A stretch of DNA of 64,000 bases from a virus (IMGVR_UViG_2778261559_000013); one strand, 5' to 3'. Shown: positions 12,841 to 37,878, numbered from the stretch's first letter. The notes: generated by a model from the letters alone, not told the origin. Numbers and translations are program-made.

Positions 12841-15571
<2,731 letters not shown>

Positions 15572-30774: not shown

Positions 30775-32259
30775 TTACTCATTAAGCCATGCCAGAGCTT
30801 CATCAACCTGCGCTTCGTCTTCGACGCTAAGCACTTCATCTTGGGGAACATAGTTCGCCAACATAGCGAAACAATATGTATCCCAATGGTCCGGTGAGTG
30901 CAGGTTGAGTTTTTTCTTCATATCTTCCTTTGACATCACCTTCCATTGACCTGCGGAATTTATCCCGACCGGTATCTTTGATGCTTCCTCTATAGTCGCA
31001 GCCCCCTTATCAAGCCGCATACGCCCTGATTTTACAGCTTCTGCCGCCTGAATATTCGCGAAAGCGCGCATATCGAAATAAAGGCTTTTATCTTCACGGC
31101 TGTGCATCTTTTTACCCCAGCGGATACGCTGGACGGTAATACCATAGCGTTCGTACATCAGATCAGCCGTCGATTTCCCCAAGCCATCGCCATCAATAGC
31201 TATGGTTATGTTCGGGAACCGTTCTGGGTTACATTCTGCGAAAATCTTGGCGGCTAACTGCGTTTCTGTAACGTCTGTGTATTCCAGCATACGATAGTTG
31301 ATTACACGGCGTTTATTTCGCTGGCCGGACACCATCATGATATTAATAACGGACTTATCTCGTCCTGTGCCACCAGCAACGTCAACACATGCAACCCAGC
31401 CCCATCCTTTGGCAATCTTGACCTTTCGCCGCGTCGCCCGCTCAACCTCATCACGACCAAGAAGAAAGCCATCTTGCGATTTGGGAAATTCACCACGTAC
31501 TTTGATCATGTACATGGGGTTATCACGACCGCCATACTCCGCAAGTTTTGCTCGTATAAATTTTGCATCTACAAGCGGAGATTCTTCACTATTCAGTATT
31601 ATCGCAGTAAACAATCCATCAGGATTTCCCGGGCGAATAGCTAGTCTGTGGTGTGAATCGTAGAAATAGCCTGAAGGTCGCGTAGGCTGGGAAAGAAGCA
31701 GAATACGGTTATCCTTACCGGTCAGCGCACCTGTTATCACACTGAATGCTTTATCACTCACACCCGACGCTTCGTCGATGATATACAAGAGATGATCGGC
31801 GTGTTCACCAGCCAACGCCTCCTCATTTCCGGGGCGACAGGACTTTATCAATATTGTCCAAACACCCTTGCCAGTCACCTCAAAAAAAGACGTTTCTGTA
31901 AGAATGAAATACTTCGACAACCACGGGAATCTGCTAACAGCAGTAGCCCAATTGCTCTTTATGTATTTGAAAATACCATCAAGGACTTGCTGTCTTTTGT
32001 TAGCGACCAGAATGACGCGAGCGCCGGGGAAAAACATGATGAAGAGTATTGCAATAATACTCGTCATATCCGACTTACCAGTACCATGGCCGGAGGTCAC
32101 ACTTGTCCAACTGCCGTCCTGCTGCGTGGACTCAATGATCTCATCCTGCTGCCAGGTTGGTGTCTTCCCAAACAACACATCAGCGGCCGCAATCCAGTCA
32201 TAACGATATAGCGCCACCAGCTCGCGCCAACGTGGGTCCGTTACGCAACTTCTGGCCAT
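30775..32259 (-). CDS. pacB: terminase large subunit PacB, 494 aa
   Basis: Walker A SGHGTGKS and Walker [11 protein letters not shown]; size and position downstream of pacA. Confidence 0.88.
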
Positions 32260-33452
32260 TAATCATCATCCCCGTACAGTTTGCGGGTAACTTCTTCGTC
32301 TTCCTCCTCGTCTTCGTCCAGATCCTGTTCAAGCCATGCTTCGTTTGATATGCCTTCCGCATCGACATCACCATAACCGCCTGTATCGACGATATCGGCA
32401 ATTTCTTCTCTACGATGCTCAATCCACAATGCGGCATCAGCGCGGCGGCTGGCGGCCCGTTCTCGCGCGATTTTATCCAGATCTTCAAGTGATGGAGCGC
32501 CAGATGCTGTTTGGTTTTCCTCGTCATCGGTATTGGTCTTAGGAGCACGCAGATCGGCTTTGATTTGCTCCAGCATCAGGGGCGGCACTTTTCCTCCATG
32601 CGCCTCGATGAATTCAGCCGCTTCCAGCACTGACCAGTTATTTTCACGCTTTCGTTCGTATGCCAGCTTAACAATGCCAGCTTGCCCCATAGACAAAGCG
32701 TGCTTTTCCGCCTCCCGGCTTTCTTTTCGATAGTTATTCCGGATGCTGTAAATGGTGTTGATCAGGCTGCTTATCTGCGCGGAACAGCTGTTTAGCATGC
32801 TCGCGATACGGTATTCAGGCGGAGTACCTTCATCATCGTCTTTTTGCTGATCGCGCATTTCCTGCACCAGGCGAATACACGTATCCCTGGCGTTCTCCAG
32901 CATAAGGAGATGAGAAAGAGACTTTTCAAGAAGAGTGGTTTCCAGAACATCGGCCCCGGACCGACGCAACATAGCGCGCGCGGCCTTCCGCGCTTCAACG
33001 TTATCTATCAGGTAATCGCCAGCTTCGAATTCAAAGCGTTCACCATCATCATCCAGGGTGTCGCGTTCCAGGCGATCACGTAAGGTCCGGTGGGCGCGGG
33101 TGATCACGTCATGATCATCTGAACGATCATTTATGCGCTTATTTTGGCGCTTCGCATTCTCGACTGCGGCACTGACAACGGCATTAACTCTTTGTTTTTC
33201 CGCTATTTCAGCCGCAATATGATCACCTGCATGTTGATCATTAGAGTGATCAATGATCATGCTTTTTAGTGGCTTCCTGACTGGCTTATTTGGCTTGCGG
33301 CTGTCCGCAGTCCTGGTGTCTTCTTTGAAGGCACGGAGATAACGACGTGCGGTATTAGGGTTAAGATTAAACTCGGCGGCATACTGTGCGATGGTGTAAC
33401 CACCATCTCGCGCCAGGCGAGCAAAATTCTTCTTGTGATCGTCCCAGGTCAC
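32259..33452 (-). CDS. pacA: terminase small / pac-recognition subunit PacA, 397 aa
   Basis: GTG start after AAGGAAG; contains the GATC-hexamer pac site in its 5' part; size matches P1 PacA. Confidence 0.8.
33073..33259. other. pac packaging site: two clusters of four (T/C)GATCA hexamers separated by ~90 bp
   Basis: Hexamers at about 33073, 33101, 33112, 33124 and 33220, 33235, 33247, 33254, each containing a Dam GATC site, inside the pacA 5' coding region. Confidence 0.6.
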
Positions 33453-33519
33453 TTATGCTTCCTTTCGTAAAAACTCTTTTTGACGCGAGGGTAACGAAAG
33501 TCACATGTCAAAAGGCCCG

Positions 33520-34875
33520 GAACGGGCAAGCAATCAGCAAACAACCGCCGAGAACCCTCGCCCAATGCGGGCGGGGAGGAAAGGCGGGAAAGCCCACAGG
33601 GCTTTAAAAAAAAATCATTACGGTGTTAGCATAAAAACCTGTATCAATGAGCGGTGACTATGTTAAGAGCGACAAAAGTACGCATCTATCCAACCACTAA
33701 ACAGGCTGAGTATCTCAACGCCCAGTTCGGCGCCGTGCGTTTTGCGTACAACAAAGCTCTTCACATCAAAAAACACGCTTACCAGCGACACGGAGTGAAT
33801 TTAAGTCCGCGTAAAGATTTAAAACCGTTGTTGTCTGTGGCGAAGAAGTCCCGTAAGTATGCCTGGCTTAAAGAATTTGATTCAATGGCATTGCAACAGG
33901 CGGTGATTAATCTTGATGTGGCGTTTTCCAACTTTTTTAATCCGAAGCTGAAAGCCCGGTTCCCGACGTTTAAACGTAAACATGGGAAACAATCGAGCTA
34001 CCATTGTGTCGGGATTAAAGTACTGGAGAATGCCATCAAAATTCCTAAGCTGGCACCGATAGAAGCGCGTATACACCGTGTAATGACGGGAAAAGTGACG
34101 AGCATAACAATCACTCGCAGTGCCACCGGGAAATACTACGCATCCATCCTTTGTGAAGACGGTATTCCCACACCAGCGAAACCTGCGTATCTGGAGGAAG
34201 AAAAGATTACTGGTGTGGATATGGGACTTGAGCACTATGCCATCAGGTCTGACCGGGCAAAAATTGCGAATCCCCGCCATCTCATCAATGCCAGCCGTAA
34301 TCTGCGACGCAAACAAAAAGCGCTATCCCGCAAGCAAAAGGGAAGCGCGAATCGTAAAAAGGCCAGAATCCGTCTTGCGGCCATACACGAACGGGTAGCG
34401 AATGCCCGTGCTGATTTTCAACATAAACTTTCTCGTACAATTGTTGACGAAAACCAAGCGGTAATTGTCGAGACGCTGAAAACAGCCAACATGATGAAAA
34501 ACCACAATCTGGCAAGAGCAATAGGTGATGCAGGCTGGCATAGCTTCATCACAAAGCTGGAGTACAAGGCAGCGGAAAAAGGCGTTCACCTGGTAAAACT
34601 CGACCAGTGGTTTGCCAGTTCGAAAACGTGCCATTGTTGTGGTTACAAAATGCCGGAAATGCCGCTTCATAAACGCATCTGGCGATGCCCTGAATGTGAA
34701 GCAGAGCATGACCGCGATATCAATGCGGCACTCAACATCCGGCAAAAAGGGATACTGGAACTAAAGGCGGCGGGACTCGTCGTCTCTGCCCATGGAGGCC
34801 AGCGTAAATCCGTCGTACAGACGGTTGCGGCCTGAGATGTGGGAAGCCTCGCCCAACCGGGCGGGGAGCAGTCAC
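33520..34875 (+). mobile_element. IS200/IS605-family insertion sequence carrying tnpB only
   Basis: TnpB ORF flanked by related subterminal hairpins: left cctcgcccaatgcgggcgggga (~33556-33578), right cctcgcccaaccgggcgggga (~34847-34868). Ends are approximate. Confidence 0.6.
33654..34835 (+). CDS. tnpB: TnpB (OrfB) RuvC-like RNA-guided endonuclease, 393 aa
   Basis: OrfB N-terminus MLRATKVRIYPTTKQAEYLNAQFGAVRFAYNKAL; C-terminal zinc finger CHCCGYKMPEMPLHKRIWRCPECEAEHDRDINAALNI. Confidence 0.85.
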   Translation: MTMLRATKVRIYPTTKQAEYLNAQFGAVRFAYNKALHIKKHAYQRHGVNLSPRKDLKPLLSVAKKSRKYAWLKEFDSMALQQAVINLDVAFSNFFNPKLKARFPTFKRKHGKQSSYHCVGIKVLENAIKIPKLAPIEARIHRVMTGKVTSITITRSATGKYYASILCEDGIPTPAKPAYLEEEKITGVDMGLEHYAIRSDRAKIANPRHLINASRNLRRKQKALSRKQKGSANRKKARIRLAAIHERVANARADFQHKLSRTIVDENQAVIVETLKTANMMKNHNLARAIGDAGWHSFITKLEYKAAEKGVHLVKLDQWFASSKTCHCCGYKMPEMPLHKRIWRCPECEAEHDRDINAALNIRQKGILELKAAGLVVSAHGGQRKSVVQTVAA

Positions 34876-35324
34876 ATACGTGCGGATGTGGCATTACCGT
34901 AATGACGGTGCTGACGGGCCACCTTATTGAAAAGTTGACGCGCCATTACCCAAGGCTGGTGCTCCCGGCGTTCCTTTTCGTCCTGCGTCATATAGAGTTC
35001 GTTCTGGAGTTTTTCATCAAACCGGCGCGGAGCGCGGCTACGGCGAAAGAATTCAGGATTCAGAGAGTGGATCTGAAATCTACGTGGGCGTGTACTGTCA
35101 TCAATCAAAACAGACGAATACTTAGACACAGCAATAGCCTTTAAGCGCAGATAAACATCGCGCTTATCGACATCCAGATGCGGGTATTCCTTTTCAAGAA
35201 TTGCTGCGAGTTCTTTCGCTGATAGAAGAGATTTAGTGCGGATCATGTAATCCGCAATCTCGTACGATGTTATTCGTGAGTGATTTATTTCCATGAAGTG
35301 GCGTCCCTGCCAGTTAAGTAACAT
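34872..35324 (-). CDS. Lpa-like late promoter activator (by position upstream of pacA and downstream of a C1 operator), 150 aa
   Basis: Synteny only; the stop codon directly abuts the IS right-end hairpin. An alternative start is the internal MEINH at 35294. Confidence 0.45.
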   Translation of the reverse strand: MLLNWQGRHFMEINHSRITSYEIADYMIRTKSLLSAKELAAILEKEYPHLDVDKRDVYLRLKAIAVSKYSSVLIDDSTRPRRFQIHSLNPEFFRRSRAPRRFDEKLQNELYMTQDEKERREHQPWVMARQLFNKVARQHRHYGNATSARM

Positions 35325-35394
35325 CCTGTCACCTACTGATTAGCCCATGTCAACTAATCAACGTGGAATATAATACCCTCGATTAAAGAAATAG

Positions 35395-35411
35395 CAATAC
35401 ATTAGAGCAAT
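35395..35411 (-). promoter_or_regulatory. C1 operator (ATTGCTCTAATGTATTG) upstream of the lpa-like gene
   Basis: Operator core match; lpa is C1-controlled in P1. Confidence 0.5.
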
Positions 35412-35412
35412 T

Positions 35413-36456
35413 TTATCTAACACTCGACGAGTGACTTGTGATAGCGCCGACTCCAAGCGCGTAATCAAAGAACAATCGTTGATGCATCGCCAGCCTACCG
35501 TGCGTCTTCTCCCAATTATCGCGGTCACGCTCAATATCACGCTGGCATGACTGGCACAGAGGAATTGCGTAAATGTCATGCGCGCATAATCGACTATGAC
35601 GAACGATATAAGGCGTAATGTGAGCGCCAGCTCCCGCAGCTCCACACCCACAGCATGGACGGGAAGCAACAAAGTCCATGTACTCAGGTAATTTTAGCGA
35701 TTGCAGTTTTGGTATTTTGAAATGCGCCATGCCAGGGTCGGAGTCAACATCCACAGGGCATACTTTTGCACGCATCGGCGCGGCGCGTTCTTCCATCATC
35801 TGAACATATGCTGTAGCGCGATCGTCATACGGGCGAATATCCGCCTCTTTCATAGGTCCGCTATCCTGCGTTGCAGCCTTAATCTTATTTATTGATATAC
35901 GGCAGACTTCTTCCGGCATCAGGTGCATCATGTCGCGCATGAAAGCCCACCAGCACAGTTCCTGAATACTTAAATCATGGCCATCTGAAAGCCCCATTTC
36001 CTGACGGGCGACATCCAGTATCCAGTTAACGCGATTATTATGCAGCGTTTCTTTCAGCTCATTAAAACTACGCATCCGGTAATGGTTATCGTGATGCCAG
36101 CACAACAACACCGCGCTATTGTCTCGTTCTGCGTGGACAATATGGTTGTCACACCAGCTACGATCTGCGGCCTGGCATTTCCCCTCTTTCCTGCGCAACC
36201 ACGCCACCAGCGCGTCAATTCCACCAATACGGCGAAACAGTTCATCGCTGTTAAAAAACGGCTGCAACGCCTCATTTGTTGCCATAGTTTGCTCGGAAAC
36301 AACGAGGCCGTCGTCCATGTGCTCGATTAACTCACGCGGCACCGGCTCCATAATAAATTTACGGCCAGCCTCCACCAGCTTTCTGACTTCCTGATCCACT
36401 TTGAATGTGGCGACGCCAAGCTCTTTTTGTACAAAGGGAGTAATTACGGCTTTCAC
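35413..36456 (-). CDS. hypothetical protein with C-terminal Cys/His cluster, 347 aa
   Basis: ...[43 protein letters not shown] suggests a zinc-binding, possibly HNH-like, module. Confidence 0.5.
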
Positions 36457-36483
36457 ATCACACCTTTCATCACTGATTGGGCT

Positions 36484-36684
36484 TTATCTGCTGCCCGGCA
36501 TTCTCTGTTTAAGCACAACCATTTCCTGACGGCATAACACAGCAATAGCAGTCCTGGCTCCAATTTGCTTACCAACCAGGTATTGCTTTACCTCGCGGCG
36601 ACTCACGCCATCAAGAAGCATCTTTAACGCTTCACGGGACAATTTGTTGTATTTGCGTGCCATTAATCTACTCCGCAGAACCAT
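36484..36684 (-). CDS. small basic protein, 66 aa, immediately downstream of doc
   Basis: ORF only. Confidence 0.3.
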
Positions 36685-37048
36685 ACAATCTACGTAACGT
36701 GTCGGCGACAGAAGATACAGATATCTCGCCAGTCGCAGCCCCTACAGTAAGGTCTGCCAGTTCAGGTGAATCAAATACCTGCACCCCGTTACGGCGTAGA
36801 AATAGCAGCGCGCTGTTTAGCGCGGTACGCTTATTGGCATCATTGAATATATGCCCTCTCGCTGTAGCCACTAGGTAGGTGGCGGAGACTTCGAAAAGGT
36901 CGGTGATCTCTTCGTAGGCAACTCTGGCCTGAACTCTCCCGATAATGGCTTCTGCCCTGCCCGGATCTGACATGCCCGGCAGGCCGCCGTAGCGGCTTAT
37001 ATTCGCATCATGAAGCGCAATAAGTTCTTCCGGTGATATATGCCTCAT
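36668..37048 (-). CDS. doc: Doc toxin (Fic-fold kinase), 126 aa
   Basis: [40 protein letters not shown]...[23 protein letters not shown] contains the Fic-type HxFx(D/N)xNKR motif; matches P1 Doc. Confidence 0.95.
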
Positions 37049-37269
37049 TATCGGTTAACCAGTTCCTTGTTAGTGGAGTCCAGAGTGTCAAACAGGGATG
37101 CAAATTCGGCATCCAGCGCCGCTTTTTTATAGGCTTCGAAAGTGGCCTTGCTGACAATTACGGCTGATTCACGGCCTCTGCGGGTGATTTCAACCTCTTC
37201 CCCTGCTTCGACATTATTGAGCACTTCGCTAAGGTTGCCGCGTGCGGTACGGAAGTTAATGGATTGCAT
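37048..37269 (-). CDS. phd: Phd antitoxin, 73 aa
   Basis: [73 protein letters not shown]; overlaps the doc start. Confidence 0.95.
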
Positions 37270-37278
37270 AAACACCTC

Positions 37279-37300: not shown

Positions 37301-37413
37301 ATTATAAACTTCACAAGCATAAAGCACCAGCACTTTGCAGCTTAAATCACCGGACAATCGTCAAACTCCCCACTTCGGGCATCATTGATGAAATGATGTG
37401 GTCACACCAAACT

Positions 37414-37878
37414 TTAATCTTCAAGGTCTGCTTCTGATACCACTGTATAACCCAGAAATATTTTAATCTCATCCCACAATCCCATGATCTTGCCTTCATA
37501 CTCTGATGGTTCTCTTACAATTACTGAATCTGGGGGAGAGTGAGCCTCTAATTCGGTTATGATCTCATGGCAAAGATTATGTTTGTAATATTGTTTTAGT
37601 TGCTCTCGAATAGGTTTTGGCGCACTTTCAATAGTTTCTTTTGCGGCATTTAGTGAAAGAATTATATTACTTGCGTCATTAACATCCCAGTCTGATCCAG
37701 CTTTTCCTGTTGCTATTTTATTTGCCCTATCAGCAAAGTTTATCAATGCTTCACTATAAAATTTTTCCTTATCGAATAATCCAAGCTTTTTACTTGTGCG
37801 CAAACTAATAAAAGCAGCTATTGCTGACCCAAATGCCGCAATAGCTGATGCCCAATCGGGATTGATATGAAGAAACAT
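37414..37878 (-). CDS. hypothetical membrane-anchored protein, 154 aa (low-GC cargo next to phd-doc)
   Basis: N-terminal TM helix (WASAIAAFGSAIAAFISL); AT-rich; no recognisable motif. It sits where I would expect a UmuD-like gene in P1 but is not UmuD-like. Confidence 0.5.
   Translation of the reverse strand: MFLHINPDWASAIAAFGSAIAAFISLRTSKKLGLFDKEKFYSEALINFADRANKIATGKAGSDWDVNDASNIILSLNAAKETIESAPKPIREQLKQYYKHNLCHEIITELEAHSPPDSVIVREPSEYEGKIMGLWDEIKIFLGYTVVSEADLED

Follow-up and report, generated by a model that had tools for sequence, protein, structure and literature searches.

A tnpB-only ISEc46-like insertion in the last codon of lpa in a P1-like phage-plasmid, with a conserved RNA structure at its right end

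Organization of the lpa–pacA region

The window analysed here is the whole 64,000 nucleotide stretch of viral DNA IMGVR_UViG_2778261559_000013, which is from a P1-like phage-plasmid. The genes pacB, pacA, and lpa are found on its minus strand, beside a gene of the DUF968 type, and an insertion sequence (IS) on the plus strand lies between pacA and lpa. In the P7 annotation lpa, the late promoter LPpac, and pacA are directly adjacent. The features of the region are as follows.

30775–32259, minus strand: pacB, from the minus-strand gene list
32259–33452, minus strand: pacA (terminase small subunit), between pacB and the IS
33488–33506, minus strand: −10 and −22 boxes of the late promoter LPpac, mapped from the P7 annotation; the sequence 33401–33536 is identical to P7
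33538–34875, plus strand: the whole IS, an ISEc46-like derivative lacking tnpA, absent from P1 and P7 and with a right end that is conserved in 73 relatives
33660–34835, plus strand: tnpB, 391 aa from an ATG, or 393 aa from a GTG at 33654
34872–35324, minus strand: lpa (late promoter activator), 150 aa (Pfam BPP1_LPA, E 3e-57), with the C-terminus ...SARM* as against ...SARI*

Boundaries and target site of the insertion

A tnpB-only insertion of the IS200/IS605 family between the lpa-like gene and pacA was the original prediction for this locus, with ends at 33520 and 34875. Its presence is supported by empty sites in P1, P7, and 117 IMG/VR contigs, the latter found by a pattern scan. P1, P7, and other P1-like phages match window positions 33200–35200 in two segments, which adjoin each other in the phage genomes, where 667 nt are present versus the 2001 nt of the window. 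By comparison with the IS-free contigs, the insertion occupies 33538–34875 on the plus strand and is 1338 bp long.

Comparison with the uninterrupted lpa–pacA junctions of L087, P7, and the other IMG/VR contigs gave the exact ends as well as the TCAG target. In an ungapped comparison with P7, identity extends to 33536 on the left and begins again from 34876 on the right. The junction is GCAATCA-ATCAGA-TACG in 116 of the 117 IMG/VR empty sites. In the remaining one, contig L087, it is GCAATCAGATACG, which is the exact join of the left flank of the window (last nucleotide 33537) and its right flank (first nucleotide 34876). The L087 empty site, ...GCAATCAG/ATACGTG..., where the slash marks the junction, matches the window through 33537. 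The sequence 33520–33537 is P1 backbone, identical to P7 as far as 33536 and to L087 as far as 33537. The true left end is therefore 18 nt further right than the predicted one, while the predicted right end stands. At 34875 the boundary is exact, as similarity among 73 family members ends at ...GGGGAGCAGTCAC. These 73 relatives, all from the Gammaproteobacteria, share ...GAAG-CCTCGCC(loop)GGCGGGG-AGCAGTCAC, beyond which their DNA is unrelated. Homology with copies at other loci spans 33532/33534 to 34875.

The L087 empty site shows neither duplication nor loss at the target, and the element sits 3' of TCAG. Three independent insertions, those of the window, L002, and L200, are all located 3' of this tetranucleotide. 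The P7 junction could be read as a replacement of 5 nt (ATCAG), however this reading was rejected in favour of an ATCA copy-number polymorphism combined with a 1 nt ambiguity of the boundary. The polymorphism is located at the lpa stop codon (window positions 33530–33537), where 116 IMG/VR P1-like contigs (L003–L118) have GCAATCAATCAG and the window and L087 have GCAATCAG. The extra ATCA in most of the phages is a separate copy-number polymorphism, apart from the insertion.

It is scarcely conceivable that no insertion took place and that the stretch instead belongs to an ancestral P1-like backbone or arose in assembly. Nothing in favour of this was found. P1, P7, and the 117 IMG/VR contigs do not have the stretch and their junctions are exact, which rules out an ancestral backbone without a clean boundary. 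The element family is also present in unrelated contexts across the Gammaproteobacteria, and eight independent assemblies have identical junctions.

Subterminal hairpins and guide tetranucleotides

The element has no terminal inverted repeats. Instead, subterminal imperfect palindromes are present at both ends, as is characteristic of the IS200/IS605 family. The sequence features of the ends are listed here.

33534–33537, plus strand: TCAG, target tetranucleotide, left cleavage site (C_L), and predicted TAM; P1 backbone outside the IS, as seen in the L087 empty site
33552–33555, plus strand: GAAC, left guide tetranucleotide (G_L), directly 5' of the left hairpin
33556–33576, plus strand: left subterminal imperfect palindrome (IP_L), CCTCGCCC-AATGC-GGGCGGGG, with its foot 18 nt from the left end
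34843–34846, plus strand: GAAG, right guide tetranucleotide (G_R), paired with the terminal TCAC
34847–34866, plus strand: right subterminal imperfect palindrome (IP_R), CCTCGCCC-AACC-GGGCGGGG, with the cleavage point 9 nt 3' of its foot
34872–34875, plus strand: TCAC, right cleavage tetranucleotide (C_R), the final 4 nt of the IS

Two related imperfect hairpins at subterminal positions had been noted, and those at IP_L and IP_R are conserved in the relatives. When the window was shuffled 100 times, the 23 nt left motif was matched by chance 0 times, and the hairpin is present at both ends in approximately 70 related elements. The terminal TCAC and the GAAG before the right hairpin occur together in 52 of 56 scored loci. 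At the left end, conservation in the relatives extends from TTAG/CAA... to ...CCGTAAAC, which is followed by the hairpin CCTCGCCC-loop-GGGCGGGG. In the family comparison the conserved left end begins at either TTAG or TCAG followed directly by CAA. The left-end spacing is 18–20 nt in the relatives, with the TTAG/CAA boundary read from the flanks rather than set at a fixed offset. A GAAC left guide with TCAG in the flank is found in the window, in L002 (the ISEc46 copy of phage RCS47), and in L200 (IncI1-type plasmids). Approximately 55 relatives, including the full-length ISEc46, have an AAAC left guide with TTAG. L185 has a tandem duplication about 130 nt upstream of tnpB, in which the first ~16 nt of the left end, TTAG target included, are repeated (CCTTAGCAATCACGCC twice).

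In IS608 the C_L is TTAC with a G_L of AAAG and the C_R is TCAA with a G_R of GAAT, with hairpin spacings of 19 nt and 10 nt, respectively (PMC3201880; PMC5934647). The guide and cleavage site code of IS608 holds for the pairs GAAC-TCAG and GAAG-TCAC of the window, as well as for AAAC-TTAG in the relatives. Since the code is that of IS608 and the spacing is close to it, a Y1 transposase should be able to act on both ends. With its three independent insertions, the TCAG subfamily looks like a natural example of the IS608 retargeting rule, in which a one-base change in the left guide (AAAC to GAAC) accompanies the change of target from TTAG to TCAG.

Absence of tnpA and relationship to ISEc46

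No tnpA was identified by tblastn in the element or anywhere in the window. A TnpA match at 15092–15346 (E 0.07) is inside a 569 aa ORF on the other strand and was discounted as chance. Many of the relatives have approximately 520 nt between the left hairpin and tnpB, containing a divergent 141 aa ORF that matches Pfam Y1_Tnp (E 4e-39). A full-length ISEc46 with an annotated tnpA is present in the E. coli plasmid pEF7-18-51_1 (L199). The accession of the ISEc46 TnpA is WP_000064874.1. In the window this interval is reduced to about 80 nt, yet retains both the hairpin GGCGGGAAAGCCCACAGGGCTTT, which follows the left end of ISEc46, and approximately 30 nt upstream of tnpB. This region is what is left of the full-length ISEc46 layout after removal of tnpA. 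Because full-length relatives carry a Y1_Tnp tnpA and the window has none, the copy here is a non-autonomous derivative and not an autonomous IS.

The closest named IS is ISEc46, with 83% amino acid identity in TnpB and 78–84% DNA identity across the comparisons made. By the ISfinder convention, copies of the same IS share about 95% or more amino acid identity and 90% or more DNA identity. The element falls short of such near-identity in its TnpB, as well as in its DNA, at 78–80%. It is therefore an unnamed member of the ISEc46 group, of a kind that is itself well known.

The TnpB protein

Translation of tnpB is more likely to start at the ATG at 33660, as it does in the homologues and the RefSeq copies (391 aa); the same ORF is annotated by RefSeq in the sister plasmids. 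The ORF contains the Pfam domains HTH_OrfB_IS605, OrfB_IS605, and Cas12f1-like_TNB. A phmmer search of PDB sequences aligned TnpB with that of ISDra2 (8h1j, 8exa) over residues 5–383 (E 8e-79). In the 393 aa numbering, the RuvC triad is intact as D189, E273, and D355, in the motifs GVD(189)MG, IVE(273)TLK, and HDRD(355)INAALNI. The CxxC...CxxC zinc finger is likewise intact, as C326, C329, C345, and C348. A 393 aa TnpB with an intact zinc finger had been noted, and the ORF at 33654–34835 with its four cysteines agrees with this. Against PDB sequences, 33654–34832 scored best with 9yyg (E 2e-82), described as an 'AI-designed RNA-guided nuclease', and slightly less well with the natural ISDra2 TnpB. 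A simple scan upstream of tnpB found no sigma-70-like promoter.

The residues of ISDra2 TnpB that contact the TAM are Y52, S56, K76, F77, Q80, T123, and N124 (PMC10097598). Q80 is kept in the window TnpB, whereas K76, F77, T123, and N124 are replaced by S, M, S, and Y. The residues aligned with the TAM contacts are conserved across the family, with no consistent difference between TCAG-type and TTAG-type members that would track the switch between them. As these residues do not separate the two types, TCAG is a candidate TAM of the window TnpB, put forward by analogy. Natural retargeting of TnpA from AAAC to GAAC and from TTAG to TCAG would need a TnpB that tolerates or follows the new TAM.

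Conserved RNA structure at the right end

It had been proposed that the right end also encodes the omega-RNA guide for TnpB. Folding of the 3' end with an alignment of the last 230 nt of 73 family members gave a covarying structure there. The prediction on the plus strand is given below.

34765–34875, plus strand: predicted omega-RNA (reRNA) scaffold, from RNAalifold and covariation in 73 sequences
34765-71/34779-85, plus strand: scaffold helix (RNAalifold)
34789-93/34839-43, plus strand: scaffold helix (RNAalifold)
34797-803/34827-32, plus strand: scaffold helix (RNAalifold)
34810-14/34820-24, plus strand: scaffold helix (RNAalifold)
34847-54/34859-66, plus strand: right-end hairpin, as a scaffold helix (RNAalifold)

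The five helices are all within 34765–34866, and 18 of their 36 pairs show compensatory changes across the 73 sequences. Paired cells make up 98.0% in the alignment, compared with 85.6% in column shuffles and 34–54% when the partners are slid by 1–3 columns. Cells that are changed on both sides, and are therefore compensatory, number 307 versus 17–70 in the slid controls. Several pairs are predominantly G-U, which assigns the structure to the plus strand, the sense strand of tnpB, and most of the scaffold is inside the tnpB coding sequence. The minimum-free-energy fold of the window sequence alone gives the same helices. The z-scores of single-sequence DNA and RNA folds are modest, at −1.1 to −2.3, so the claim for the structure rests on the covariation.

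A search of 33300–35100 against Rfam, in E-value mode, returned no matching family, with a single chance snoRNA match outside the element. A pseudoknot between the loop GGACU (34773–34777) and AGUC of the right end was considered and dropped, as by eye it is not kept in relatives with the loop GGUCA. The reRNA, or omega-RNA, of ISDra2 is ~150 nt, matches the 3' end of tnpB and the right end of the element, and derives its last ~16 nt from the flank (PMC8612924). The last ~110 nt of the window element fit the scaffold of such an RNA.

Predicted guide and its target

34876–34895, plus strand: predicted omega-RNA guide and homing target ATACGTGCGGATGTGGCATT, by analogy with the ISDra2 reRNA; antisense to the 3' coding end of lpa

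In line with the original prediction, in which the sequence just outside the right end determines the target of TnpB, the analogy with ISDra2 predicts that the guide is set by this adjoining flank. As a guide this predicts ATACGTGCGGATGTGG, from the 3' end of lpa, the flank being the complement of its last codons. All 116 of the IS-free IMG/VR P1-like loci contain TCAG followed by a perfect match to the 20 nt guide. In the IS-bearing plasmid, on the other hand, the 20-mer is preceded by GTCAC, not TCAG. The window contains no other site that matches the first 16 nt of the guide with up to 3 mismatches. The mechanism of TnpB has been described (PMC8612924; PMC10097598; bioRxiv 10.1101/2023.03.14.532601). 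The arrangement seen here has the geometry of that TnpB homing/retention model (bioRxiv 10.1101/2023.03.14.532601; PMC8612924).

Consequences for lpa, LPpac, and pacAB

The insertion is between lpa and pacA, as predicted, yet it is not strictly intergenic, as it interrupts lpa within its final sense codon (ATC to ATG). On the minus strand, the P7 sequence ...CGT ATC TGA corresponds to ...CGT ATG TGA CTG... in the window. Lpa keeps its 150 residues and has a single, conservative change, I150M. The TCAC terminus of the IS supplies, as its complement, both the G of this codon and the TGA stop of lpa, with the stop being the complement of 34872–34874. The stop codon is regenerated in register because the C_R TCAC resembles the target TCAG, which holds the complement of the stop codon. 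It had been noted that the lpa stop abuts the right-end hairpin. The stop is 5 nt beyond the hairpin, inside the terminal TCAC of the element.

A terminator-like hairpin, GCCCGTTCCGGGC-CTTTT, on the minus strand at 33514–33527 stays by pacA and is now 1.3 kb from the lpa stop. LPpac and this hairpin are still next to pacA, therefore late transcription of pacAB should be unaffected. The P7 annotation places lpa, pacA, and pacB under the control of the C1 operator Op(lpa), and only read-through from the C1-controlled lpa promoter would cross the insert. An influence of the insertion on pacAB expression, as had been suggested, is therefore not to be expected through LPpac, which is untouched, and such read-through is the one route that remains. 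tnpB and the RNA converge on lpa. The change of Lpa at I150M alone, together with the intact LPpac and pacAB, explains the tolerance of the insertion in a viable phage-plasmid lineage.

Distribution of the insertion

The closest public records to the window are Escherichia albertii plasmids, with 99.9% identity over 33400–35000. The identical insertion and junctions are found in four E. albertii plasmids, three E. coli P1-like plasmids, and one IMG/VR contig. In the other carriers the IS has 1–7 differences from the window copy, and annotations show the ORF to be intact. The IS-bearing plasmids have mosaic backbones, with 98–100% identity over 32538–36876 and 72–86% in pacB (four sister plasmids). 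The close flanks are conserved in all P1-like genomes, so homing and ordinary recombination are indistinguishable here. Over 31038–32538 (pacB and the 3' half of pacA) the window is 72–86% identical to four other IS-bearing plasmids, which points to recombination with a breakpoint within pacA and to a pacB allele that is divergent. The region 37376–37876, containing a minus strand ORF of 154 aa (37414–37878), has no blastn match in the sister plasmids L201–L204. This ORF looks like an accessory gene beside the phd/doc toxin-antitoxin pair (36668–37275).

A search for other copies of the IS found the close isoform (at least 99% identity) at the lpa site only, with relatives at 90% and 80% identity elsewhere. 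No copies of at least 95% identity were found at sites other than lpa in the complete E. coli genomes and PLSDB. As the isoform is at one site only, nothing points to recent transposition. Identity falls to 90.7% in the next nearest copies, as in L200 (E. coli pLR-58-1_2, 1507–2842), where the element is tnpB-only and located between psiA and ardA. The psiA–ardA copy is found in the leading region of many 85–110 kb plasmids of E. coli, Salmonella, and Klebsiella, in more than 100 records. The tnpB-only copies of the TCAG subfamily occupy at least three different sites. Within IMG/VR the IS-bearing allele is rare, at 1 versus 117 empty sites (about 1 in 118), and this rarity does not suggest efficient homing.

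Origin and possible role of the element

It is very probable that the locus carries a non-autonomous ISEc46-like IS200/IS605 element, acquired through a single peel-and-paste insertion in the last codon of lpa and retaining an intact tnpB and an omega-RNA scaffold. An ISEc46-like derivative that had lost tnpA would have inserted once by single-strand peel-and-paste transposition, landing 3' of the top-strand TCAG, one nucleotide before the lpa stop codon. Catalysis may have been provided in trans by the Y1 TnpA of a full-length relative. All of the cis features that TnpA requires are kept, being the two hairpins, the matched guide tetranucleotides, and the IS608-like spacing. Through the mimicry of TCAG by TCAC the stop is in register, with Lpa altered only at I150M. 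tnpB and the last ~110 nt most likely give rise to a TnpB-omega-RNA nuclease, with the adjoining lpa sequence as its 3' guide. The natural substrate of this nuclease would be the IS-free allele (TCAG then ATACGTGCGG...), generating a bias toward retention or homing as in ISDra2 and related elements. By the same analogy, transcription of the RNA, nuclease activity, and homing would be expected.

The element may instead be an inert relic, immobile without tnpA, with its tnpB and RNA unexpressed or inactive, and kept because it is nearly neutral for P1. This is possible but rather unlikely. The window has no tnpA, the simple scan found no consensus promoter upstream of tnpB, the isoform is at a single site, the allele frequency is low, and the protein residues aligned with the TAM contacts do not follow the TAM switch. 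Near-neutrality would also follow from the regenerated stop codon and the intact LPpac. Against this, the ORF is intact in all eight copies with conserved catalytic and zinc-finger residues, the window copy has retained its two ends with their guide tetranucleotides as well as the RNA helices, and tnpB-only elements of the subfamily are present at three or more different sites. The likelihood is lower again that the main consequence of the insertion is regulatory, with antisense transcription of tnpB and the omega-RNA and the 1.3 kb separation lowering or retiming Lpa and read-through pacAB expression. Such an effect would be in keeping with the convergence of tnpB and lpa, the overlap of the predicted guide with the 3' coding end of lpa, the regulation of lpa, pacA, and pacB by Op(lpa) in the P7 annotation, and the removal of the GCCCGTTCCGGGC-CTTTT hairpin to 1.3 kb from the lpa stop. 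However, LPpac is intact and adjoins pacA, Lpa is of the same length with one conservative change, and the lineage persists in several hosts.

Returning to the element as a non-autonomous insertion with an intact tnpB, its nuclease could conceivably act as an RNA-guided gene drive or as a weapon of competition among P1-like phage-plasmids, cutting the lpa–pacA junction of a co-resident or superinfecting IS-free relative, although this is improbable. A cut would be predicted in any IS-free P1 relative because 116 of 116 have TCAG and the perfect 20 nt match. If this were so, the relative would be either converted by homologous repair, that is by homing between phages, or excluded. Such RNA-guided homing or competition between P1-like phage-plasmids is the only mildly novel possibility to arise from the locus. 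Most of what is gained is in annotation, with the ends, target, guides, and omega-RNA scaffold defined for an ISEc46-like tnpB-only element in a P1-like phage-plasmid. The locus also illustrates target mimicry by an IS end, through which an essential late regulator that is hit in its last codon regains a stop and the insertion is tolerated. Every IS-free P1-like genome examined has a match to the predicted guide, so homing by TnpB from one co-infecting phage to another would be directly testable here in a tractable system.

Comparison with known elements

The TnpB of ISDra2 from Deinococcus radiodurans aligns end to end with that of the window, and the RuvC triad and zinc finger are kept. As with the ISDra2 reRNA, the scaffold spans from the 3' end of tnpB into the right end, and the flank contributes the predicted guide. 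ISDra2 differs in carrying tnpA and in its target and TAM, which is the pentanucleotide TTGAT rather than the TCAG seen here or the TTAG of the relatives.

Like IS608 of Helicobacter pylori, the element is inserted 3' of a tetranucleotide without duplication. The correspondence between guide and cleavage site is also shared, with TT matched to AA, TC matched to GA, and a complementary fourth base, and the spacing is near to that of IS608, at 18 nt on the left (19 nt in IS608) and 9 nt on the right (10 nt in IS608). The tetranucleotides themselves are different, TCAG and TCAC as opposed to TTAC and TCAA, and the window copy is without tnpA.

The hairpins, the right end ...GGGGAGCAGTCAC, the G_R and C_R pair, and the tnpB architecture are all shared with ISEc46. 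Full-length ISEc46 differs from the window element in having the divergent tnpA and a left end with TTAG and AAAC, and the insertion site of the window element is not that of the ISEc46 copies. The ISEc46 copy of phage RCS47 (L002) is closer in type, being tnpB-only, in a P1-like phage, 3' of TCAG, and with the G_L GAAC.

IS1341-type tnpB-only elements and palindrome-associated transposable elements are non-autonomous derivatives of the IS200/IS605 family. The window element resembles these in that both ends and tnpB are kept, the transposase is gone, and mobilisation in trans is required. Unlike them, its descent from a tnpA-bearing relative can be traced directly.
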